DNA of 64,000 nt, taken from Candidatus Poribacteria bacterium (lineage in GTDB: Bacteria > Poribacteria > WGA-4E > WGA-3G). Each line of letters opens with the position of its first letter. Position 1 is the first letter of the stretch. The position numbers and the translations under genes were made by a program. Below, in pieces: positions 52,795 to 64,000 of the stretch. A model generated the notes under the pieces. It was not told the origin of the DNA. It was given only the letters and a program-made list of their open reading frames with translations, and made no database searches. Location of the stretch: assembly GCA_965205025.1 (NCBI GenBank), contig CBDBFU010000003.1, forward strand, positions 32,001 through 96,000, given 5' to 3'.

Positions 52795-53121
52795 ATGCCA
52801 TTTTTTGATATAAAATCACAACCAGAAATAAGTGCCTTTGATGGAGTTTCAATTCGAACAGTTCATGGTGAGAAATTAATGCTATCCTATGTGCATTTAG
52901 AACCACATAGTATAGTGACTGAACATAGTCATCCACATGAACAGATGGGTATGGTATTAGAAGGGATATTCGAATTGAATATTGACGGAGACTCCAGAAT
53001 ACTTACTAAAGGTGATACATACCTAATTCCATCTGATACCAAACATAGTGCCCGAGCCTTTGATAACCCCGCTATTGCACTTGATATATTTAGTCCACCA
53101 CGGGAAGATTATATCAATTGA
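52795..53121 (+). CDS. Cupin domain protein
   Basis: HSHPHEQMG, IPSDTKH, DIFSPPREDY. Confidence 0.92.
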   Translation: MPFFDIKSQPEISAFDGVSIRTVHGEKLMLSYVHLEPHSIVTEHSHPHEQMGMVLEGIFELNIDGDSRILTKGDTYLIPSDTKHSARAFDNPAIALDIFSPPREDYIN

Positions 53122-53888
53122 CTAAAAATCTATATATTACAGTTAAATCATTAGAATCTACTGGATTAGTCAAAGCAGGTATAAGTCAACGAATAGGTGG
53201 AGTAAGTCCACCACCATACAGATCACTAAACCTTGCAACCCATGTTAGGGACAATCTGGACAATGTCACCAGAAATCAACAGAAATTATCTAAACAAACA
53301 GGGATAAAGACATTAAAGTATTGCAATCAGATCCATAGTGATAAGGTTATTGATGCAGACCAAATAACTCACCCATATTGGAATGGAATTGGTTCTGCAG
53401 AATCTACTCCAACCGGAGATGCTCTTATATCTAAAATCAATAACACAACATTAGGCGTATTTACTGCAGACTGTATCCCAATATCTATTTTAGATCTCAA
53501 CACACCATCAATAGCAATTGTTCATGCGGGTTGGCGTGGAACAGAAGCACAAATTGCTATCAAGACACTTAATAAAATGAAGGAGGATTATGGAACAAAA
53601 GCCGATAACTGTCTTATCCATTTAGGTCCATCCATACAGAAGTGTTGTTATGAAGTTGGGGCAGATTTACTATCAAAGTTTAGTCAGAAATTCGGTGATT
53701 CTGTTGTCTATGGTAATCACCTATGTTTACAAACAGCGAATGTTAACCAGTTGATTGACTACTCAGTTCCTGAAACTTCCATTTCAATTTCGCCATTTTG
53801 TACCTCTTGTAACCTCAATCGTTTTTATTCTTATCGAGTTGAAGGTCAAGAAACTGGTAGGATGTTATCATATATACAGTTAATATGA
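53118..53888 (+). CDS. pgeF: PgeF/YfiH family purine nucleoside phosphorylase-like protein
   Basis: SLNL, NQIHS, FTADCIPI, HAGWRG, GPSI..CCYEVG, FYSYR. Confidence 0.92.
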   Translation: MTKNLYITVKSLESTGLVKAGISQRIGGVSPPPYRSLNLATHVRDNLDNVTRNQQKLSKQTGIKTLKYCNQIHSDKVIDADQITHPYWNGIGSAESTPTGDALISKINNTTLGVFTADCIPISILDLNTPSIAIVHAGWRGTEAQIAIKTLNKMKEDYGTKADNCLIHLGPSIQKCCYEVGADLLSKFSQKFGDSVVYGNHLCLQTANVNQLIDYSVPETSISISPFCTSCNLNRFYSYRVEGQETGRMLSYIQLI

Positions 53889-54124
53889 ATTGAATCTAAT
53901 AGAGAATACCCATATCAGCTGGTAGGACCAGTCATCTAACCTTCTCATTTAAATAGTAGAACAAATTCTTACTTGTACCTTAGAAAATTCACCAACAATA
54001 ACAAGTAAGAACAATCAATTTACGAATCATAGCCACACCTAATCTTATTTGCTTTATTGTAAAAAAAATGGTATCATTAACCAACCGAGAATGGGTATTC
54101 GGTTTTTACCGAGTGAGGAATTGA

Positions 54125-54460
54125 ATGCGTTCATTTTTTCTCTCATTATCAATCTTGTCAAGCCTGATCGGCCTCTATTTTATTTTCCGCGGATGTATAC
54201 ATCCAACATTATACACTAAGGAATTATCAAAAGAGAATACAACTGCTGTAAGGGTTACCCAAGTATATACTGAGGCTACTTATCGGGTTGTTCTGGGTAT
54301 CGGTTTTACTTCATTTGCTATCTTTACAGGCATATCAGGATTATTGATTTCAACTGATGAAGTAAAAAAGGAGATTGCCTTCGTAATTGGTAAGATTACA
54401 AAGAAGACATCAGTTTCATCAGAATCAGACAGTGCCCAAGACGAGAAGGATGAATCTTGA
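54125..54460 (+). CDS. Hypothetical two-TM membrane protein
   Basis: Two hydrophobic segments; RBS GAGG; overlaps yggS start. Confidence 0.6.
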   Translation: MRSFFLSLSILSSLIGLYFIFRGCIHPTLYTKELSKENTTAVRVTQVYTEATYRVVLGIGFTSFAIFTGISGLLISTDEVKKEIAFVIGKITKKTSVSSESDSAQDEKDES

Positions 54461-55185
54461 ATCAAATTACACAGAATCTTGATACCGTGAAGCAACGCAT
54501 TACAGATGCCGCACAACGGAGCGGGAGATTACCTGAAAAGATAGGACTTATTGCTGTAACCAAAGGAGTTGACGTTTCACAGATTCAAAACATAATTGAT
54601 GAAGGGGTCACTGATATCGGGGAAAACAGGATTCAAGAAGCACAAAAAAAATATGACATTATCAATCAAAGTAAAGAGAACGGAACACAAGAAAATAATA
54701 TAAACTGCAATTGCAACTGGCATCTGATAGGACATCTACAACGAAATAAGGTTAAATCTGCTTTAGAGATGTTCTCACTAATTCATTCAGTAGATAGCAT
54801 TCGCTTATATAAAGAGATATCTAATCGGTCTAAAGAAAAAAAGAATCCAACGAGAGTCTTATTACAAATTAATACAACAGGGGAAGTCAGCAAATTCGGT
54901 ATAGCTGTAGATGAAGTAATAAGTTTTATAGAGGAGGCACATACATATCCTAATGTGGCGATATGTGGATTGATGACAATTGGTATTTTAAGTGTTTCAC
55001 CAGAGGATAATCGTCCAGCTTTTGAATTACTCAGGAATCTATCTGAGAAAATTGAAAAACAACAATTTTCTGGTGTTGAAATGCAATATCTATCAATGGG
55101 TATGACGAATGATTTTGAAATTGCAATTGAAGAAGGAGCAAACTTAGTTAGAATAGGAACTGCTATCTTTGGTATAGATAACTAA
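54457..55185 (+). CDS. yggS: PLP homeostasis protein YggS
   Basis: LIAVTK, GENRIQE, WHLIGHLQRNK, LSMGMTND, VRIGTAIFG. Confidence 0.96.
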   Translation: MNQITQNLDTVKQRITDAAQRSGRLPEKIGLIAVTKGVDVSQIQNIIDEGVTDIGENRIQEAQKKYDIINQSKENGTQENNINCNCNWHLIGHLQRNKVKSALEMFSLIHSVDSIRLYKEISNRSKEKKNPTRVLLQINTTGEVSKFGIAVDEVISFIEEAHTYPNVAICGLMTIGILSVSPEDNRPAFELLRNLSEKIEKQQFSGVEMQYLSMGMTNDFEIAIEEGANLVRIGTAIFGIDN

Positions 55186-55282
55186 TAATTATTTGACGAT
55201 CACTCTATTGTTGAAGTTGATAGTGGTAACGGAATATAATGCTGAGTAAGAGAGTATAAATGACGATTAGTGGAGAGAATAA

Positions 55283-56098
55283 GTGGAAGAATACCTTAAA
55301 TTAGGTGTGATTGGTATAGGGAAAATGGGAGGTATTATTGTCAGAAGTATTGTAAATGACCTTCTTTCTCCACAACATATCTCAATTGTTGATCTTGATC
55401 AAAAACTTGTATCCCAATTGTGTGATGAAACTGGGGTGACAGCCGTATCAGACATACCAGAATTGTTAACTACTACAGATTATATTCTATGTGCTGTTCC
55501 TCCTGTTGCTATTCCAAATATCCTACCTCAGATATCCGAAAGTATAACAGATAAACAGTGGTTGATTAGCATAGCAGCTGGAGTATCAACAACAACTTTG
55601 GAATCATATTTTGATTCTCCTCCACCAATAGTACGAGTTATGCCAAATATTGCCGCTTCAGTTGGGGCTGCGGTTTCTGTCATATCTGCTGGTATTGCTG
55701 CTAAGGAAGGACATCTAAAGCAAACACAAAATGTGTTTGATACTTGTGGTATTACACTAATCATGGAAGAACGTCATATAAATGCTGTAACAGGAGTAAG
55801 TGGTAGCGGTCCTGCTTATGTCGCACTTTTTATTGAGGCATTAGCTGATGCAGGAGTTCTGGTTGGTCTTCCGCGTCAAGATGCACAGACTTTAGCAATC
55901 CACACTGTATTAGGAGCAGCAACTATTATGACGGAATCTAATGAACACCCAGCAACGTTAAAAAATCGTGTAACGACTCCAGGCGGAACAACTGCCGCTG
56001 GACTTCATGCACTTGAAAAGGGTGGATTAAGGGCGACAATTACTGAAGCAATACTTTCAGCCACAGAACGAGCAAAAGAACTTGATACGAGTAATTAA
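55283..56098 (+). CDS. proC: Pyrroline-5-carboxylate reductase
   Basis: IGIGKMG, SIAAG, RVMPN, SGSGPAY, VTTPGGTT. Confidence 0.96.
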   Translation: MEEYLKLGVIGIGKMGGIIVRSIVNDLLSPQHISIVDLDQKLVSQLCDETGVTAVSDIPELLTTTDYILCAVPPVAIPNILPQISESITDKQWLISIAAGVSTTTLESYFDSPPPIVRVMPNIAASVGAAVSVISAGIAAKEGHLKQTQNVFDTCGITLIMEERHINAVTGVSGSGPAYVALFIEALADAGVLVGLPRQDAQTLAIHTVLGAATIMTESNEHPATLKNRVTTPGGTTAAGLHALEKGGLRATITEAILSATERAKELDTSN

Positions 56099-56112
56099 GA
56101 AGGAACAAAGTT

Positions 56113-56373
56113 GTGGAACTATTGGCTGGATTACTCAAACATCTCTTAAACATTTACATGCTTGTTATTATCCTGAATGTAATTTTATCATGGGTTGTAT
56201 TCGGTACACAGAATATAGTCATTCGTCGGATTTATCTGGTTACAGGACAATTCGTTGATCCCCTATTGCAACCGATTCGAACATTTCTAAATCCAATGAC
56301 TCGAAACATTGGAATTGATTTTTCTCCAATTGTCTTAATTGTACTCTTAGGTATACTTGAATCATGGTTATAA
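56113..56373 (+). CDS. yggT: YggT family membrane protein
   Basis: ILSWV, DPLLQPIR, GIDFSPI. Confidence 0.9.
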   Translation: MELLAGLLKHLLNIYMLVIILNVILSWVVFGTQNIVIRRIYLVTGQFVDPLLQPIRTFLNPMTRNIGIDFSPIVLIVLLGILESWL

Positions 56374-56448
56374 TTTTAGAGGCTTTAGCCTACTCTGGCT
56401 TGTATACATGATTCTTCTTAATCTTTATAAACAAATCAAACCTGTCTT

Positions 56449-59025
56449 ATGAAAAAGACGAACACACCTACACGGAACTCTAATTCAGATCCTTCTAAGA
56501 GTCTAATCCATAAAAAACCAGTTTCTACAAAAGTACAAGAGTCTACATTCGAATACAGACTTGCTTCGGATATAGTCCAATTTTGGACAACACAAAACGT
56601 CTATTCGGACAAGGAAAAAAACTCTGAAACACCAACTTCTGTGATTCGAGAGATGCCTACACCTGTTTCTACACTCAGTTTTGATACATTACGTAGGAAA
56701 CTATATCAAGATACATACCTTAAATTTGAATTGATGCAAGGCAACTCTGTCAATTACACTCCATTATGGGAGACTTTTCCATTTAGTATTGAATCTATTG
56801 TAATAAAAGGCAATAATGACACTGCAAATATGACCAAATTTAGAAAGCAATGTCGTCAAATTTTTGCACAACATCTAAAATCTCAACAAGAGAAATTTAT
56901 TAATCTTGGTATTTTTGCTGATTGGAAATCTGCTGAAAAATCTTTAGATACACGATATGAAACAAAAATGTTTTCTCATTTTGACAGATTACGTGAACAT
57001 AGTTTTTTACGAGATGAATTACGACTCAGTCATTGGTGTCCAAACTGTATTTTACCTTTGGAATCTGGAAAAACTGTAAACACCATTTCTACTTCAGAAT
57101 TATATACTTATGTTAAGTTTCCATTAAATATTGGTTATGAAGATTTTGGAAAGAATGTCTACTTTACCATTCAATTTACAGAAAAACAACTATGGGAAGT
57201 AGTCGGAACTATAGCATTAGGGATAACAAATAATGTTACATATTGGTTAACACACTATCAAGATGATTATCTAATTTTTGCTGAGCCTCATCTAAAGAAA
57301 TTCGTTGGTAGAAGCAAAAAACCTAAATTATGTCCTAAACCTATAGCAAAATTAGATGTTGGCACACTAAAAGATTGTACTGTTACCCATCCACTTTTTT
57401 CTCTAAACGAATTACCTATCGTTATTATTCCAGATGGGGTAATCTCTAATATTGCTGAATTTGATAATCGTAAGGAATTAATCTCTGGGATCATTCCAAT
57501 AAACCCATCACATCATACACTAAGTTATTCAATCATAAACTCTTTAGATGATTTCGAAGAGACAGACTTAAAATCACTTATACATTCTACATCAACTGCA
57601 CCAATATTTGACGAGAATGGAAGGTTCACTGAAGATGCAGACACACTATGTGGGTTAGATTTGTCTCAAGTTACGCCTTTTATAACTGATGAATTTGAAG
57701 CAAAAGGTATGTTAATAAAAACGCGAAAACAGATGACAAAACAGCATCAATGTCAAATTTGCGAAGGCATTTCAGTGTCTCGACCTTATCGACACTGGGT
57801 TTTTTCATTCGGGGCAAGTGAGATAAAGCGAGAAGTAACCAATTCCCCTGAATATTGGGAACATTATGATGAAAGTCTACGAAATCTTATTCTTGGTGAA
57901 GTAGCAAAAGTTAATGAATTGACTGTATCTTCAGAAAGACAGTGGGGAATACCGCTACCTGTTCTAAGGTGTGATAACTGTAATGAGCTATTAGCAGATA
58001 AAAAAATACTTCGATCTGTGAGGAGTTCTATTCGTAGAGGTGCTGAACAATGGTTTCGTTTGAGTGTTGAAGAACTCTTGCCAGCAGAAACTGTATGCGA
58101 AAATTGTAATTCCAAAGATTTTAGGAAAGAATCAACATATATCGAAAGTTACTTTGCAAATTTGTTGCAAGCACTTGATACATCAGATTTTAAGAAAACG
58201 GTACATGAATCATTTAATAGTATTGCATTTGTACCTGAAGCAAAATTTATTGAGTGGTTGGGACAATTAAGTATAATTTCTGCTTCTCTTCAACAAAGTA
58301 GACCAACAAAAGATAGCCAACCCTATAAGAATCTACGAATAATTCCATTATCAGATATATCAAATGATTCAGAGATTCAGGATACTATTATAGAGAAATA
58401 TCCCGCCGATGTAATAAGAATTGTATCTTTAGGCACAAATTTACAGAATGCTAATTCTGACGAGGACATTCCTGAGTATCTTGAATCCCAAATGAAAAAG
58501 ACTAATAGTAAGTATATACAATTGAAGATTTTACTAACAAACGCCATAGAAGTTAGTATGAAACTTGAAAATAGTAATAGCACAAAACAGAGAAGAAGGA
58601 GAACATTTAATCCGATTACTTTCAAAATACAAAACCTAAAAGAGACTGACTATTTGACATTATCAAAAATTAACGATTCAATTAGTAGGATAGACGAAGC
58701 ATACCAGTCAAAAACATATCATATCATCTTTGATTTACTATCGGATTTATGTGTTGAAGAATTTGTTAAGTATATACAATTGTGTCAAAATGACCTTACT
58801 GAGGAAAACTTAAAATCTACCCAAAGTACAATAACGGCAATTTTGAAAGTTGTAATTCAAAGACTTGCTCCTATTACACCATTCTTAGCAGAGGATTTAA
58901 ATAAAGCAGTATTTACCTCTTCAAAAAGTATTTTTGAAGAAAAATGGGTTAATTTACCACAAACTAATTGGAATGATGACATGGTTGAGGAGTGGAAGAC
59001 TCTCATATCAAAAAACAATAAATGA
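56449..59025 (+). CDS. Isoleucyl-tRNA synthetase homologue lacking catalytic motifs (probable pseudo-enzyme)
   Basis: FRKQCR, LGIFADW, HWCPNC, YVKFP, RQWGIPLP, FRKE, YPADVIR, LAPITPFLAE conserved; no HIGH, no KMSKS; located between yggT and lspA. Confidence 0.85.
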   Translation: MKKTNTPTRNSNSDPSKSLIHKKPVSTKVQESTFEYRLASDIVQFWTTQNVYSDKEKNSETPTSVIREMPTPVSTLSFDTLRRKLYQDTYLKFELMQGNSVNYTPLWETFPFSIESIVIKGNNDTANMTKFRKQCRQIFAQHLKSQQEKFINLGIFADWKSAEKSLDTRYETKMFSHFDRLREHSFLRDELRLSHWCPNCILPLESGKTVNTISTSELYTYVKFPLNIGYEDFGKNVYFTIQFTEKQLWEVVGTIALGITNNVTYWLTHYQDDYLIFAEPHLKKFVGRSKKPKLCPKPIAKLDVGTLKDCTVTHPLFSLNELPIVIIPDGVISNIAEFDNRKELISGIIPINPSHHTLSYSIINSLDDFEETDLKSLIHSTSTAPIFDENGRFTEDADTLCGLDLSQVTPFITDEFEAKGMLIKTRKQMTKQHQCQICEGISVSRPYRHWVFSFGASEIKREVTNSPEYWEHYDESLRNLILGEVAKVNELTVSSERQWGIPLPVLRCDNCNELLADKKILRSVRSSIRRGAEQWFRLSVEELLPAETVCENCNSKDFRKESTYIESYFANLLQALDTSDFKKTVHESFNSIAFVPEAKFIEWLGQLSIISASLQQSRPTKDSQPYKNLRIIPLSDISNDSEIQDTIIEKYPADVIRIVSLGTNLQNANSDEDIPEYLESQMKKTNSKYIQLKILLTNAIEVSMKLENSNSTKQRRRRTFNPITFKIQNLKETDYLTLSKINDSISRIDEAYQSKTYHIIFDLLSDLCVEEFVKYIQLCQNDLTEENLKSTQSTITAILKVVIQRLAPITPFLAEDLNKAVFTSSKSIFEEKWVNLPQTNWNDDMVEEWKTLISKNNK

Positions 59026-59540
59026 AATATGACAATGGTGTGTTATATAACGTGTTGAAAAAAATTAGAAACCTAAAGACAATATTACCATTAGTTTTAG
59101 TGGCAATACCAATTTTTATTCTTGATTATGTGACAAAATTATTAATCCAAATGTATATTCCTGAGGGAACAGGATACCCGATAATTCCAGGTTTCTTCAA
59201 TTTAAGACATGATAGAAATAGTGGTGCTGCCTTTGGTATATTAGCTGATCAACGTACCTTTCTTGTTTTAGTAACTATTGTTGCACTTATTTTTATCTTT
59301 TTTTACTATTTTCGATTTAGACACAGTGGATGGATGCGGATATCACTTGGGTTTCTATTAGGTGGGGCTGTTGGGAACTTCTTAGATCGAATTGTCTTAG
59401 GTGAGGTCGTTGACTTCCTTCAATTTGGAATAGTAAGTAAAAGACTATACTGGCCAACTTTTAATGTCGCTGATATTTCTGTTTGTATCGGGGCAGGGAT
59501 GTTAATTGTATATCTTTTTCGTCTTCAAAGTACAGAATGA
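59022..59540 (+). CDS. lspA: Lipoprotein signal peptidase II
   Basis: DYVTK, NSGAAFG, GGAVGNFLDR, VVDF, FNVAD. Confidence 0.97.
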   Translation: MKYDNGVLYNVLKKIRNLKTILPLVLVAIPIFILDYVTKLLIQMYIPEGTGYPIIPGFFNLRHDRNSGAAFGILADQRTFLVLVTIVALIFIFFYYFRFRHSGWMRISLGFLLGGAVGNFLDRIVLGEVVDFLQFGIVSKRLYWPTFNVADISVCIGAGMLIVYLFRLQSTE

Positions 59541-59617
59541 GTATTACAGTAAATTAATGATGAACATAATTTTCATGGATAGATCTGTTCCATTTATATT
59601 AGGATGATAAAAAATCA

Positions 59618-60193
59618 ATGAATAATTATACAATACTATACAGTTTTCTCCTATTATTTTTGCCATTCATGATAACCAATCAATCACAGGCACAATTCAT
59701 ACCACAACAAACACAAGAGACACCGGATTCTGAATATCATGAAAGTGCTTTAAGAAGATTTGAAATTATCACCTTAAGTGCTTTCCCTTTCACTGCTGTT
59801 CATAGTTATTTAGGTGTACGAGGTATACAAATGATACAACAGAATAAGATCGCTCCTGTCCTAACACCTAAGAATTATAGAATCATGGGAATTAGTGCAG
59901 TTTCTTTATCTCTATTTATTGGGGTGTGGGATTGGTACCATACTCGCAATGTTGATAGATCTGAACCCAGTATCCCTGGTCACGAACATCCATCTCCACC
60001 ACAAGATGAGATTCCTGACGATGGTAGTATTGCTCGTGCAACCTACTATGGACCATATTCGACAAATATATATTTGAATAATCAGTCTCCTAATCAAATT
60101 CCCTCCATGAAACCGTTATGTATGGGATTGAATAAATGGATGAACGAACAATCTACGCTGATTTCTCTTACATTGCTTGAAATACGCTTTTAA
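59618..60193 (+). CDS. Hypothetical exported/membrane protein
   Basis: Signal peptide, LRRFEIITLSAFPFT, one further TM segment. Confidence 0.6.
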   Translation: MNNYTILYSFLLLFLPFMITNQSQAQFIPQQTQETPDSEYHESALRRFEIITLSAFPFTAVHSYLGVRGIQMIQQNKIAPVLTPKNYRIMGISAVSLSLFIGVWDWYHTRNVDRSEPSIPGHEHPSPPQDEIPDDGSIARATYYGPYSTNIYLNNQSPNQIPSMKPLCMGLNKWMNEQSTLISLTLLEIRF

Positions 60194-60253
60194 GGATAAG
60201 TTTATTCTGATATATTAATTCTTACCATATTCCTATGAGATAATTTTGAATAA

Positions 60254-61235
60254 ATGCGTATACTCTTTATGGGCACAAGTGAATTTGCTGTTCCTGCTTT
60301 AAAATGAACTTATTGTCCAGAATTTCAATATCATTGGGGTTGTAACACAACCAGACAGACCCAAAGGCAGAGGAAGAAAATTAAGTCCTTCCCCAATAAA
60401 ATCACTTGCAACAGAACACAGTCTTCAGATAATCCAACCAGAGAAAATTAGAATGAAGGAATCTGTAGATGAATTGTTAAAACTCCAACCTGATGTCATA
60501 GTCGTTGCTGCCTTTGGACAACTTCTCCCACAGACAATATTAGACATTCCTCCTTGTGGAGTCATTAATATACATCCTTCCATACTTCCAAAATATAGAG
60601 GGGCAGCACCAATACAATGGGCAGTAATAAATGGAGAAAAGGAGACTGGTGTGTCTCTCATGTTATTAGACCAAGGTGAAGATACAGGAGATGTAATATC
60701 TATTGATAAAGTAAAGATTACTGATGAAGATACAGTAAAAACTGTACACGACAAATTAGCGAATTTAGGAGCAAAACGACTCGCTGCTTTAATAGCAAAA
60801 TTACCTAAAGAAAAACCTCCTTCAGCAATACCACAGAATCATAAGAATGCTACCCATGCACCACGACTCACTAAAGAGATTGGACATATTAATTGGAATC
60901 ATAATGCTACTGATATCCATAACCTAATACGAGGAACTATGGGGTGGCCAGGAGCATCAACTGTATACGGGGAAGGATTACAGGTAAAAATCATAAAGGA
61001 CTATACCACATAAAAATAGAAAACACTGCTGTTGATACCACATTAAAGAAACAACCAGGTAGAATACAGATTACTGCAGAACGCAAAATTGTATGTAATC
61101 ACTGGCGAAGGTGAACTTCAGATACTACAAGTTCAACCTGCTACAAAAACTGTCATGGAAGTTAGTGACTTTATCAATGGATATCAAATTAAGACTGGAG
61201 ATCGTTTCTATAGGTTAAATAGTAATCCAGAGTAA
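60254..61235 (+). CDS. fmt: Methionyl-tRNA formyltransferase; four apparent +1 frameshifts (probably sequencing errors)
   Basis: MRILFMGTSEFAVPAL | VVTQPDRPKGRG, INIHPSILPKYRGAAPIQ | ..LQVQPA..FING; extra bases near 60301, 60998, 61014, 61086. Confidence 0.88.
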
Positions 61236-61240
61236 TAGGA

Positions 61241-62212
61241 TTGAGTATGAATAAACTTAACAACATATTATTTAGATTAACTAATGTTGCCATATATCTT
61301 CTCATTGTGATGACTATTATCGGTTTCTTAATTGTGGCTGTCATAATTCCACAGTGGGTTAAGTCAACCGAGATATTAGTTCCTAATCTAATCGGAAAGG
61401 ATTATTGGCAAGCTGTAGATACACTTGGAAATATAGGATTAAAACCAGACGACATAATTCAGCAAGCGAATAGTAATCAACCAAAGGGACAGGTCATTAC
61501 ACAGGAGCCACCTGCAAACTTTAGTATAAAACCACATCACAAGGTTAAAATCACTGTAAGCGTTGGAACTGACCTATCCCCTGTGCCTTCTGTAATAGGA
61601 AAATCTATTGATGCCGCATACGAAACTTTACAATCTGCTGGTTTTCGGGTTAATACTACAGCACGAGTCCACTCAACGAATTACCTTCAAGATATTGTGA
61701 TTGCTCAGTCTCCATCTGAAAATAGCAATTTCCAAATGAATGCAGAAATTAACTTATTAGTTAGTAAGGGCAGAAAAGCACAGAATATACAATTACCTGA
61801 TTTAACAAATCAACCCTTAAATGAGGTGTTAGCCACACTTCAAGAAATGGGAATGGATGTTGATGTAAGCTATAGTCCACACCCTACAATTCCAGATGGA
61901 CACATCATTGGACACAAACGATTACTACAGATTGGTGATCGAATCACTCTTAAAGTGAGTGGACAACGAGAATTAACTGAAAATACAGGAAGATGGTTGA
62001 AACACAAACACACTGTTACCGAAATCGGAAATATGGCTAAAAAAATCGAGATTGTTATTGTCGATGCATATAGTGAACGTAAATTAAAACCTGTTTACAT
62101 TTCACCAGGAACAGTAATTGACATGGAGAAAATGAGAATTCGAGTTTTTGGTCCTACCCTTGTCATTGTATTTGAAGATGGGAAGAAAGTATCTGAACGA
62201 CAATATCAGTAG
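61241..62212 (+). CDS. PASTA-domain membrane protein (3 PASTA repeats, no kinase)
   Basis: N-terminal TM; VPNLIGK, VITQEP, VPSVIGK, VIAQSP, LPDL. Confidence 0.88.
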   Translation: MSMNKLNNILFRLTNVAIYLLIVMTIIGFLIVAVIIPQWVKSTEILVPNLIGKDYWQAVDTLGNIGLKPDDIIQQANSNQPKGQVITQEPPANFSIKPHHKVKITVSVGTDLSPVPSVIGKSIDAAYETLQSAGFRVNTTARVHSTNYLQDIVIAQSPSENSNFQMNAEINLLVSKGRKAQNIQLPDLTNQPLNEVLATLQEMGMDVDVSYSPHPTIPDGHIIGHKRLLQIGDRITLKVSGQRELTENTGRWLKHKHTVTEIGNMAKKIEIVIVDAYSERKLKPVYISPGTVIDMEKMRIRVFGPTLVIVFEDGKKVSERQYQ

Positions 62213-62267
62213 AATTTCTCCTATCAAATTGATTAGAATATTAAAGTATATCGTATATTAACTAACA

Positions 62268-62940
62268 ATGAATATTAAAAATGTAGACACACCTAAAATT
62301 GCACCATCCCTATTAGCAGCTGATTTCAGTTGTTTTGGTGATGAGGTGGAACGCGTAACACAAGCTGGGGCGGATCTACTTCATTTCGATGTCATGGATG
62401 GTGTCTTGGTGCCAAATTTCGGTATTAGTCCTCCTTTAATTGCTTCAGTACGTGATAAGACAAAGCTCGTATTTGATGTTCATATTATGGTAGCACATCC
62501 ACTTTCTTATATTGAGGCACTCGTTGACGCCGGGTCAGACATAATTACATTTCATATTGAATCACATGATGATCCAAATAAAGTTATAGAAGCAATTAAA
62601 AAATATAATGTTTCTGTAGGAATAGCATATTCCCCGAATACCCAAAACAGATGCTGTTATACCATACCTATCCTATATTGACCTAATTTTACCAATGAGT
62701 GTTGAACCGGGATTTGGTGGGCAAAGTTTTTTGCCGAATACCTTAGAAAAAATTAAAGAATTGCATAATCTCATAAATGATTTAGATAATTCTCCTGATA
62801 TATCTGTAGATGGTGGAGTGACAACAGTAATTAGTCCTTCCGCAATACAGAATGGGGCAACTATACTTGTTGCAGGTACAGCAATTTTAAAGAGTGATAA
62901 TCCACAGGAAATTATAAAACAGTTACGTACAGTAGAATAG
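62268..62940 (+). CDS. rpe: Ribulose-phosphate 3-epimerase; one apparent +1 frameshift near 62644
   Basis: IAPSLLAADF, HFDVMDG, DVHIM | MSVEPGFGGQ, VDGG, LVAG. Confidence 0.92.
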
Positions 62941-62960
62941 GTCAATTTATAAATTCTGAG

Positions 62961-63687
62961 ATGTATATGCATACATTTTATGTGCCACCTAACCAAATAA
63001 GTGGAGACTTTACGAAAATTTATGGTTCAGAACATCATCAATTACGGAATGTTCTGCGACTAAATTCGGGAGATAATGTACGGATTATTGACGGTATTGG
63101 AAATATATTAATCGCAGAAATATCTAATATTCGAAATGATTCAACTATTGTCAGCATAATTGACCATCAGATTCAATTAAAAAAGAAACCTGAGATCAGT
63201 CTTTTTCAAGGTATACCGAAAAACAATAGGATGGAGTTGATTCTACAAAAAACTACTGAACTTGGTTTAACTAAAGTCGTTCCAGTACTGACAAAACGAT
63301 CCTTACAAGAAGTGAATGAAAACCGAATTGAACGCTGGAAAAAGATCGTTATTTCTGCCACTAAACAATGTCAGACTTCGTGGTTAACTAATCTCAGTGA
63401 AGTACATGACTTCAAAGAATGTCTAAAGCAGTTACATTTCTATGACCTTAAGATAATTTTTGTGGGAAAATGAGGAAAAATATCATATTAAAACTATATT
63501 ACAGCAGACCGAACATATTGGATCTATCGCAGTATTAGTTGGACCTGAAGGTGGGTTCGAGGAAGAAGAGGTAAAATACGCAGTTGAATACGGATGTAAA
63601 CCTGTATCGTTAGGATCAAACATATTAAGAACCGAAACAGCTGCAATTGCAATTACTGCTATCATAAATTATGTATACCAGAATTAA
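62961..63687 (+). CDS. rsmE: 16S rRNA m3U1498 methyltransferase; one apparent +1 frameshift near 63458
   Basis: HHQLRNVLRL, QKTTELG, ATKQC | VGPEGGF, LGSNILRTETA. Confidence 0.92.
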
Positions 63688-63693
63688 GTGAAT

Positions 63694-64000
63694 ATGAAGA
63701 TTATGAAAACAGCAAAACTAATCACTATGGGATGTAAGGTGAATCAATACGATACTCAATCTATGCGAGAAACTCTCGTTCGTCATGGATATAGGATTGT
63801 TGATGATAAGCAACATGCGGATCTATATCTTATTAATACCTGCACCGTAACTAACGTTGCCGATCAGAAAGCAAGACAAGTCATACGGAAAGCTATACGA
63901 CATAATCCAAACGCTGATGTTTGGGTTACAGGTTGTTATGCAGAAAGTGATCGTAAAGCAATAGAGGAGATTCCTGGTGTGACATTCGTCTTTGGTAATA
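63694..64000 (+). CDS. mtaB: tRNA methylthiotransferase MtaB, N-terminal part (cut by window edge)
   Basis: TMGCKVNQYDT, INTCTVT, VTGCYA; follows rsmE as is usual. Confidence 0.88.
   Translation, partial: MKIMKTAKLITMGCKVNQYDTQSMRETLVRHGYRIVDDKQHADLYLINTCTVTNVADQKARQVIRKAIRHNPNADVWVTGCYAESDRKAIEEIPGVTFVFGN

Follow-up and report, generated by a model that had tools for sequence, protein, structure and literature searches.

A type-1 isoleucyl-tRNA synthetase homologue without catalytic motifs, retained at the ileS-lspA locus in most Poribacteria

We analysed a stretch of 64,000 nucleotides from a Candidatus Poribacteria bacterium (GenBank assembly GCA_965205025.1, contig CBDBFU010000003.1, positions 32,001 to 96,000 of the forward strand), hereafter called the window. 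The place usually taken by ileS, the gene for isoleucyl-tRNA synthetase (IleRS), is held there by an uninterrupted open reading frame (ORF) of 858 codons plus stop, with an ATG start, at 56449-59025(+). Its product, P0001, is a homologue of type-1 IleRS (IleRS1) from which the catalytic motifs have disappeared, and we refer to it and its relatives as pseudo-IleRS. The locus is composed of the following genes.

53118-53888, + strand: Cu-oxidase_4 gene (YfiH/PgeF-like), upstream context
54457-55185, + strand: YggS-like gene, upstream context
55283-56098, + strand: proC, upstream context
56113..56373, + strand: yggT (YGGT family, by Pfam), upstream neighbour
56449..59025, + strand: pseudo-IleRS1 ORF (P0001), defined by ORF call, Pfam, NCBIfam, AlphaFold2 and Foldseek
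59022..59540, + strand: lspA (signal peptidase II; Peptidase_A8, 136.6 bits), its start overlapping the pseudo-IleRS stop (ATGA)

The order of the upstream block at 53118..56098(+) (Cu-oxidase_4, YggS-like, proC) is kept in relatives, and the stretch 56000-59495 is matched by contigs from two public runs with 0 differences and 0 gaps. Pfam recognizes tRNA-synt_1 (80.8 bits) and Anticodon_1 (51.2 bits) in P0001, both above the gathering score, and the NCBIfam ileS model TIGR00392 yields 162.3 bits, below its curated cut-off of 621.4. With the same model, the deep-branching pseudo-IleRS copy of G041 obtains 445 bits and the type-2 enzyme (IleRS2) of that genome 983 bits.

Motif positions were read from alignments of P0001 with true IleRS1 retrieved in the protein search. 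The position of HDGPPYANG.IHIGH in IleRS1 is occupied in P0001 by REMPTPVSTLSFDT, aligned as (I)REMPTPVS-TLSFDT; the residues facing the class I HIGH (HXGH) signature are LSFDT, and the signature is found in none of 103 family members. GWDCHGLPIE is replaced by LWETFPFSIE, EGSDQHRGWF by VPEAKFIEWL, the editing-domain WTTTPWT by TEKQLWE (within QFTEKQLWE) and GTG.VH.APGHG.DD by ISGIIPINPSHHTLSY. The KMSKS loop has been removed by a deletion of ~13 residues ahead of KYPADVIR, in which YPADVIR aligns to GAD..R.W of IleRS1, and the C-terminal CxxC...CxxC Zn-binding domain is missing. At the CP1 editing site the Thr residues are replaced, the Asp has become Ser359 and only His355 is kept; with the Thr-rich motif and the Asp lost, the protein does not appear to hold an intact editing site of the kind present in trans-editing factors (AlaX/ProX/YbaK-like). 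Several members from other Poribacteria families keep PGH..DDY, the Thr-rich motif being likewise lost. P0001 retains CPNC, CQIC, CDNC, CENC, WGIPLP and LAPITPFLAE, and 41 of 154 IleRS1-invariant positions (4/28 in the KMSKS half). Having lost its ATP-binding signatures, its editing residues and the KMSKS loop, P0001 is predicted to be unable to activate isoleucine, to charge tRNA or, in this lineage, to edit, and we consider it almost certainly dead for aminoacylation. The regions of the gene are listed below, with ranges of dN/dS (the ratio of nonsynonymous to synonymous substitution rates) and conservation across the 103 sequences; f1 is the Poribacteria family in which the N-terminal tail occurs.

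56449..56559, + strand: N-terminal disordered K/R-rich tail, residues 1-37, only in family f1
56560..57033, + strand: Rossmann-fold N-half, with PLWETFP for the former GWDCHG; dN/dS 0.09-0.25
56647-56691, + strand: former HIGH region, REMPTPVSTLSFDTL, from the alignment with IleRS1
57034..57750, + strand: CP1 (editing-domain) homologue, Thr-rich motif and Asp lost, His355 kept; dN/dS 0.11-0.22
57037..57048, + strand: CPNC (C197/C200), first half of Zn site 1; C197 invariant, C200 conserved in at least 90%
57751-57762, + strand: CQIC (C435/C438), partner in Zn site 1; C435 invariant, C438 conserved in at least 90%
57751..58143, + strand: CP core/Zn/CP2 region, with QRQWG.PLP, CDNC, WFRLSVEELLP, CENC and DFRKE; dN/dS 0.05-0.15
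57970-57981, + strand: CDNC; C508 and C511 invariant
58096-58107, + strand: CENC; C550 and C553 invariant
58144..58443, + strand: Rossmann-fold C-half, VPEAKFIEWL for EGSDQHRGWF; dN/dS 0.07-0.22
~58330-58398, + strand: site of the deleted KMSKS loop, followed by KYPADVIR
58444..59022, + strand: linker helix and helical anticodon-binding domain (LAPITPFLAE; Anticodon_1 at residues 738-855), with no C-terminal Zn finger after it

The origin of the protein was addressed with a maximum likelihood tree (quick IQ-TREE run, 38 rows, ValRS as outgroup). All 16 family members sampled form one clade, with a support of 99 in the Shimodaira-Hasegawa-like approximate likelihood ratio test (SH-aLRT); IleRS1 and the family group together (SH-aLRT 100), IleRS2 stands apart (99), and the family branches are far longer than those of IleRS1. 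In a profile search of the PDB with the 103 members, IleRS1 structures scored highest (8c9f 387 bits, 1ffy 356 bits), the IleRS2 structure 8c9d reaching 228 bits. By these comparisons, the family is a descendant of type-1 IleRS that still resides at the ancestral ileS-lspA locus. AlphaFold2, run with the family alignment, predicted a model with a mean local confidence (predicted local distance difference test, pLDDT) of 86.3 and a predicted TM-score (pTM) of 0.84, in which residues 1-32 are disordered (pLDDT <50). The best Foldseek matches of this model are full-length IleRS1 structures (8c9f, E 3.8e-35; 8c9e; 1qu2), with a TM-score of 0.62 to the tRNA-bound 1qu2, and the full type-1 fold is intact in the prediction. 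The N-terminal tail has a median length of 37 residues, with 10 Lys/Arg and 3 Asp/Glu, in 91 f1-type members, and is missing from 12 members of other families. A sequence-only reading of this DNA had described an open ORF of 858 codons in the usual place of ileS, colinear with type-1 IleRS, with every catalytic motif replaced or absent and the C-terminal Zn finger gone, and with the CxxC pairs, WGIPLP and LAPITPFLAE persisting. All the strings it quoted are present in the translation and fall on the catalytic motif positions of IleRS1, the neighbours are yggT upstream and lspA in ATGA overlap, and the structure prediction it proposed returned an IleRS1-like model over the full length; the alignments add only the nuance of the retained His355.

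The genome of the window (G000; 5.66 Mb, 33 contigs, 95% complete) encodes, besides ValRS, LeuRS and MetRS, a second IleRS of 1057 residues on contig C27 (L002 229-3402(-)), which we assign to IleRS2 because it has WTTTPWT, KMSKS, the GVHH signature in place of HXGH and a DUF5915 C-terminal domain. The sequence-only reading had supposed that a second IleRS with intact motifs would exist elsewhere in the genome, and this holds well beyond G000, since 167 of 176 Poribacteria genomes yielded an IleRS2: both genes occur together in 147, IleRS2 alone in 20 and the dead copy alone in nine, and no genome lacks both. ARAGORN detected one tRNA-Ile(GAU) and three CAU tRNAs in G000, an ordinary set for Ile decoding. 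From the gene content, charging of tRNA-Ile is attributed to the separate IleRS2, and a horizontal acquisition of IleRS2, if there was one, would predate the radiation of the phylum. The f2/g5 genomes and most of f3 carry a distinct IleRS2 (45-47% identity, aligned from query residue 152 onwards), which hints at a replacement within the phylum.

The nine assemblies without a detected IleRS2 include G004, the nearest relative of G000, with 99% marker completeness in 120 contigs, in which the ileS family model detected no IleRS. They are what could be said for a pseudo-IleRS that still charges tRNA through a non-canonical mechanism. However, all nine are fragmented (40-910 contigs), whereas IleRS2 is present in every assembly of <40 contigs, and the G004 assembly likewise lacks the three flanking genes of ileS2 seen in G000 and G018. 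When the 10-kb region around ileS2 of G000 was compared at the DNA level, G018 proved syntenic over its entire length, and G004 yielded only a ~380-nt intergenic piece, on a contig ending nearby, and a dispersed repeat; with the ileS2 neighbours missing too, the absence in G004 looks like an assembly or binning gap. The loss of HIGH and KMSKS also speaks against residual charging: in the part of Brkic et al. (2023; PMC10485003) considered here, no non-canonical HXGH was found among 158 IleRS1, and swapping HXGH to GXHH abolished IleRS1 activity. We regard a still active IleRS as extremely improbable.

Relatives of P0001 that carried a name in the protein search belong to Candidatus Poribacteria. 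With P0001 as query and E <= 1e-15, pseudo-IleRS matches were obtained in 156 of the 176 Poribacteria genomes (f1 111/111, f3 25/29, f4 6/7, f5 3/3, f8 7/8, f9 1/1 and f10 2/2), with none in f2 (0/11) or in f6, f7 and f11 (0/1 each). The HIGH and KMSKS loop are missing in 12 of 12 distant members that were translated, and all 103 members sampled are without catalytic motifs; as the distant members share this loss, catalysis was lost before the radiation of the sampled phylum. The C-terminal Zn finger persists in the f10 member (L049, 931 residues, 445 bits to TIGR00392), so that domains were shed stepwise once catalysis was lost.

Among 20 loci of the same genus, the ORF is open in all (849-877 residues) and the proC-yggT-gene order is kept; lspA comes next in 18, and in the other two no lspA was found within 1.5 kb. 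Other families and classes show the same context, yggS-proC-(yggT or DivIVA gene)-gene-lspA, and the ATGA-type overlap is missing in most other members, where a gap of ~10-30 nt separates the two genes. This synteny across classes and the translational overlap with lspA in G000 could suggest a protein-protein scaffold or regulator, with IleRS2, translation factors or envelope and division proteins encoded nearby (YggT, DivIVA, LspA) as partners, and known pseudo-synthetases such as HisZ do act as subunits (listed in the consulted part of PMC9437257). Nevertheless, such a linkage is nothing unusual for active ileS1: among 71 IleRS1 loci from other phyla that extend far enough downstream, lspA is the very next gene in 32 and lies within the locus in 50. 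The Firmicutes gene order, for instance, is ylmD-ylmE-sepF-ylmG-ylmH-divIVA-ileS-lspA. The neighbourhood is thus inherited and uninformative on function, in two genus loci no nearby lspA was found, and we consider a scaffold role improbable.

Selection was estimated by pairwise Nei-Gojobori dN/dS on codon alignments of the 20 genus orthologues, 94 of the 190 pairs being saturated. Pseudo-IleRS gave 0.15-0.20 at dS 0.4-0.9, and for the same pairs proC gave 0.07-0.10, lspA 0.06-0.15 and yggT 0.07-0.44; in the closest pairs (dS < 0.2), pseudo-IleRS ranged from 0.16 to 0.51. In matched genome pairs, its dN/dS was 0.11-0.27, against 0.03-0.07 for IleRS2, and identity within the genus was 47-84%, against 81-93%. 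Every folded domain stays below 0.55 (anticodon-binding domain 0.20-0.30, linker 0.11-0.54), the tail of f1 being high and noisy (0.19-1.55). Conservation reaches at least 90% at 132 positions across the 103 members, whose identity to P0001 is 21-88%; 50 of these positions differ from the IleRS1 consensus and are family-specific; the CP core/Zn/CP2 region is the most constrained part, with 36 of 131 positions at least 90% conserved.

These values bear on whether the gene is a functionless relic, either a slowly decaying pseudogene or an ORF open only for the transcription or translation of lspA. Its evolution, 3-5 times faster than that of IleRS2, together with outright loss in at least two lineages and truncation in one genome, would suit such a relic. 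Yet dN/dS is far from the ~1 of a relic, the 132 conserved positions persist although identity within the family falls to 21-28%, nearly all 156 genomes have an open frame, most other members have no lspA overlap, and an ORF merely kept open would not constrain its amino acids. The low dN/dS and the conserved positions therefore argue against both forms of relic, which we find very unlikely, and the claim of the sequence-only reading that so much divergence without stops is not simple decay is upheld by the intact orthologues at the same locus. As far as these substitution patterns can tell, pseudo-IleRS is nearly certainly under selection for some function.

We consider it very probable, on this evidence, that the dead IleRS1 copy has a new job. 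The best explanation, to which we assign a probability of about 0.5, would be a non-catalytic pseudo-synthetase that acts by binding, with tRNA or another RNA as the most likely ligand; for RNA binding as the specific mechanism, our confidence falls somewhat short of even. The type-1 copy at the ancestral locus lost catalysis before the Poribacteria diversified and has since been kept by purifying selection as a folded protein, charging being left to the separate IleRS2; we hypothesize that it acts by binding and not by aminoacylation. Its most likely partner would be tRNA(Ile) or some other RNA that docks on what remains of the synthetase scaffold (the Zn-stabilised CP core, the Rossmann remnant and the helical anticodon-binding domain); in f1, the newly acquired disordered Lys/Arg-rich tail may aid binding, and the protein would exert a regulatory or chaperone-like effect that is not essential. 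Several observations hint at RNA as the ligand. The family keeps the entire tRNA-facing architecture. The second Zn site has four cysteines that never vary within the family, although they do in true IleRS1, and conservation of this Zn knuckle and of its surroundings exceeds that in real IleRS1; moreover, the f10 member keeps the C-terminal Zn finger, and f1, devoid of that domain, has the polybasic tail.

Other observations, in addition to the nine assemblies without IleRS2, weigh against this proposal. Among the folded domains, constraint is weakest in the anticodon-binding domain (dN/dS 0.20-0.30), where only 2 of 11 IleRS1-invariant positions survive, the C-terminal Zn domain that recognizes the anticodon is gone in most lineages, and the basic tail is restricted to f1. 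The net charge is not conserved either, ranging from -51 to +6 within the family, a variation that makes isoelectric point and net charge uninformative on RNA binding. The gene has also been cleanly deleted in f2 (0/11) and f3/g3 (0/4): at the deleted loci of f2 (G028, G025) and f3/g3 (G026), proC-yggT is followed by a short spacer or small ORF and then lspA, and tblastn at the f2 and f3/g3 loci found no remnant of pseudo-IleRS. In G087 (f4/g7; L062 3303-3755(-)), only a 150-residue C-terminal fragment lies between yggT and lspA, which is either a recent truncation or a misassembly. Two genomes of the genus of G087 have an intact 734-residue gene, and ambiguous bases occur near the G087 fragment. 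The clean deletions and this truncation imply that the gene is dispensable. Finally, conservation peaks in the remodelled active-site motifs (IREMPTPV, PLWETFP, KWL and YPADV.R), which suits a ligand pocket no less than an RNA surface.

The former synthetic site may instead bind a different small molecule, with the protein serving as a HisZ-like sensor of an amino acid or metabolite or as an SbzA-like aminoacyl-tRNA-dependent transferase; it would then be more than an RNA binder, either an enzyme independent of ATP or an allosteric subunit. The four motifs just named, which replace HIGH, GWDCHG, GWF and GAD..R, belong to the best-conserved stretches of the family, dN/dS is low in both Rossmann halves (0.07-0.25), and family-specific residues make up 50 of the 132 highly conserved positions. 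In addition, P70, D88 and W603 are invariant in the family, and we take them to align with Pro46, Asp85 and Trp558 of Thermus thermophilus IleRS, which line the isoleucine pocket. Against a pocket, further positions of it are lost (E to V595, Q to D599 and W to H568), and the conserved core motifs may be merely structural. The precedent is SbzA, an IleRS homologue with a non-translational role, which transfers Ile from Ile-tRNA in SB-203208 biosynthesis (PMC6331615, consulted in part). According to the same part of that source, SbzA is similar to T. thermophilus IleRS, charges weakly, keeps slightly changed HIGH and KMSKS motifs and is encoded in a biosynthetic gene cluster, whereas pseudo-IleRS has neither modified HIGH/KMSKS motifs nor biosynthetic neighbours, but lies in a housekeeping locus among yggS, proC, yggT and lspA. 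Since SbzA keeps HIGH and KMSKS, the analogy is weakened, and we judge a remodelled pocket rather unlikely, if less so than a scaffold.

Returning to binding-based pseudo-synthetases, P0001 combines a retained fold, lost signatures, a canonical enzyme elsewhere in the genome and purifying selection, its loss of activity being deduced from the motifs. HisZ, the HisRS-like regulatory subunit of ATP phosphoribosyltransferase, is one such protein, an inactive paralogue kept for binding or regulation; unlike pseudo-IleRS, it is a class II protein with a known partner and pathway. As far as the consulted part of a review on duplicated synthetases goes, HisZ is among those listed, and LeuRS-I of Sulfolobaceae and LeuRS2 of Halobacteria are, like pseudo-IleRS, retained class Ia duplicates with little or no aminoacylation (PMC9437257). 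LeuRS-I is reported to be important for optimal growth and still to bind tRNA, but it also still forms leucyl-adenylate, whereas pseudo-IleRS, which is bacterial, IleRS-derived and phylum-wide, has no ATP motifs; the IleRS paralogues listed in that part of the review are IleRS2 and SbzA (PMC9437257). By analogy, LeuRS-I, LeuRS2 and HisZ are the nearest functional counterparts, none of them an IleRS1 without ATP motifs.

With bacterial IleRS1 itself (Priestia megaterium 8c9e, Staphylococcus aureus 1ffy/1qu2), pseudo-IleRS shares ancestry, domain order, fold, the two CP Zn sites and the place upstream of lspA; it differs in having lost HIGH, the KMSKS loop, the Thr-rich motif, the editing Asp and the C-terminal Zn finger, and in evolving much faster. 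Genomes with both IleRS types have been described, and, in the portion of the article used here, GXHH in IleRS2 is linked to mupirocin hyper-resistance (Brkic et al., 2023; PMC10485003); G000 likewise has both types, with GVHH in its IleRS2. In the pairs described there, however, both enzymes are active, whereas the type-1 copy of Poribacteria has lost all catalytic motifs (PMC10485003). Full-text literature searches gave no description of the Poribacteria pseudo-IleRS family, supplements being outside their scope (members could be present in the source tree or alignment of PMC10485003). The protein is of a known kind, the pseudo-synthetases, and what is new here is an IleRS1 without any catalytic motif that is conserved across most of a phylum.

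Some further features of the window and of G000 were recorded. Just downstream of the checked stretch 56000-59495, the assembly has 1-nt insertion errors: fmt (60263-61300), rpe (62268-62940) and rsmE (62961-63687) are each split by frameshifts in the window, and a contig of run X2 (depth ~30) matches 59881-63999 with 0 substitutions and one base fewer at 60301, 60998, 61020, 61085, 62641 and 63457, X3 agreeing with X2 at three of the six frameshift sites. As X2 lacks one base at each site, these breaks are assembly errors and not pseudogenes. Directly 3' of lspA, an ORF of 191 residues with a hydrophobic N-terminus (59618-60193(+)) gave no match in Pfam; in most relatives, distant families included, this slot holds an ORF of 162-215 residues with a similar start. 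A search for regulatory RNA with Rfam at gathering thresholds found nothing in the window, and a promoter and terminator scan of 54000-61500 did not rise above shuffled sequences (31 sites vs 33.8 and 4 vs 3.2, respectively). With default settings, ARAGORN called 41 tRNA genes in G000, including tRNA-SeC, and found no tRNA-Ser; the Rfam tRNA model (40 matches) added nothing, and a lowered ARAGORN threshold gave 2751 calls that amount to noise, so that assembly incompleteness or odd Ser tRNAs may account for the absence. A non-coding repeat of ~430 nt (L151 40-680; C27:21540-22180) is present 65 times in G000 (~79% identity) and dozens of times in G004 and G018, with no copy in the window, no ORF >80 residues and no Rfam match.

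A profile search with the pseudo-IleRS family against 1.84 billion representative sequences listed 150 matches with the family itself at the top; of the 20 best, 19 fit none of six motif patterns. Among the matches listed are other IleRS1-like proteins without HIGH and KMSKS that keep HDGPPY, GWD.HG and the C-terminal Zn finger (P0145, P0149, P0157, P0163, P0165, P0175, P0176, P0184, P0185, P0197, P0205, P0222, P0239 and P0263, all from other lineages), and the named sources of such non-Poribacteria proteins are metagenome-assembled genomes (MAGs) of Armatimonadota and Bacillota. In a tree of 63 rows, ten of them form a clade of their own (99), apart from the Poribacteria clade (99), and the others are singletons; from these separate clades, catalysis in IleRS1 seems to have been lost several times. 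A search for related loci from the alignment of the non-Poribacteria clade returned 80 loci of ordinary IleRS1 (37-44% identity) and did not reach the genomes of the clade. Strict motif patterns are matched by 65 of the 80, 12 have variants of the KMSKS loop (KTSKS, KQSKS and xMHKS) and three were unmatched by the patterns; the 71 loci of the lspA linkage count given above were drawn from this set.

We tentatively propose, although we hold it to be rather doubtful, that dead IleRS1 is a recurrent and undescribed class of pseudo-synthetase that arises after takeover by IleRS2, with the Poribacteria family as its oldest and most remodelled case, and that the rebuilt active site (with P70, D88 and W603 kept) and the invariant Zn-knuckle region carry out the new function. 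If so, this function would be amino-acid or metabolite sensing, or an ATP-free action on (aminoacyl-)tRNA-Ile, rather than passive RNA binding, and the clades without HIGH and KMSKS in Armatimonadota and other MAGs would have taken this evolutionary path independently.

Textbooks present class I synthetases as essential enzymes, and IleRS1 is described as tolerating not even slight alterations of its HIGH motif. A full-length IleRS1 that has lost all its catalytic signatures and is conserved under selection through most of a phylum is a natural experiment on the reuse of a 100-kDa synthetase scaffold, and a clean example of the fate of the resident enzyme once a resistant IleRS2 takes over. 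Some source records label members of the family 'isoleucyl-tRNA synthetase' (JGI) or 'class I tRNA ligase family protein' (NCBI), and the name 'isoleucine--tRNA ligase' is attached to two of the similar proteins of other phyla; such names could mislead genome-based inference of IleRS type or of mupirocin sensitivity. The family is well defined, with ~100 sequence clusters and a confidently predicted structure, and would be open to ordinary biochemistry.

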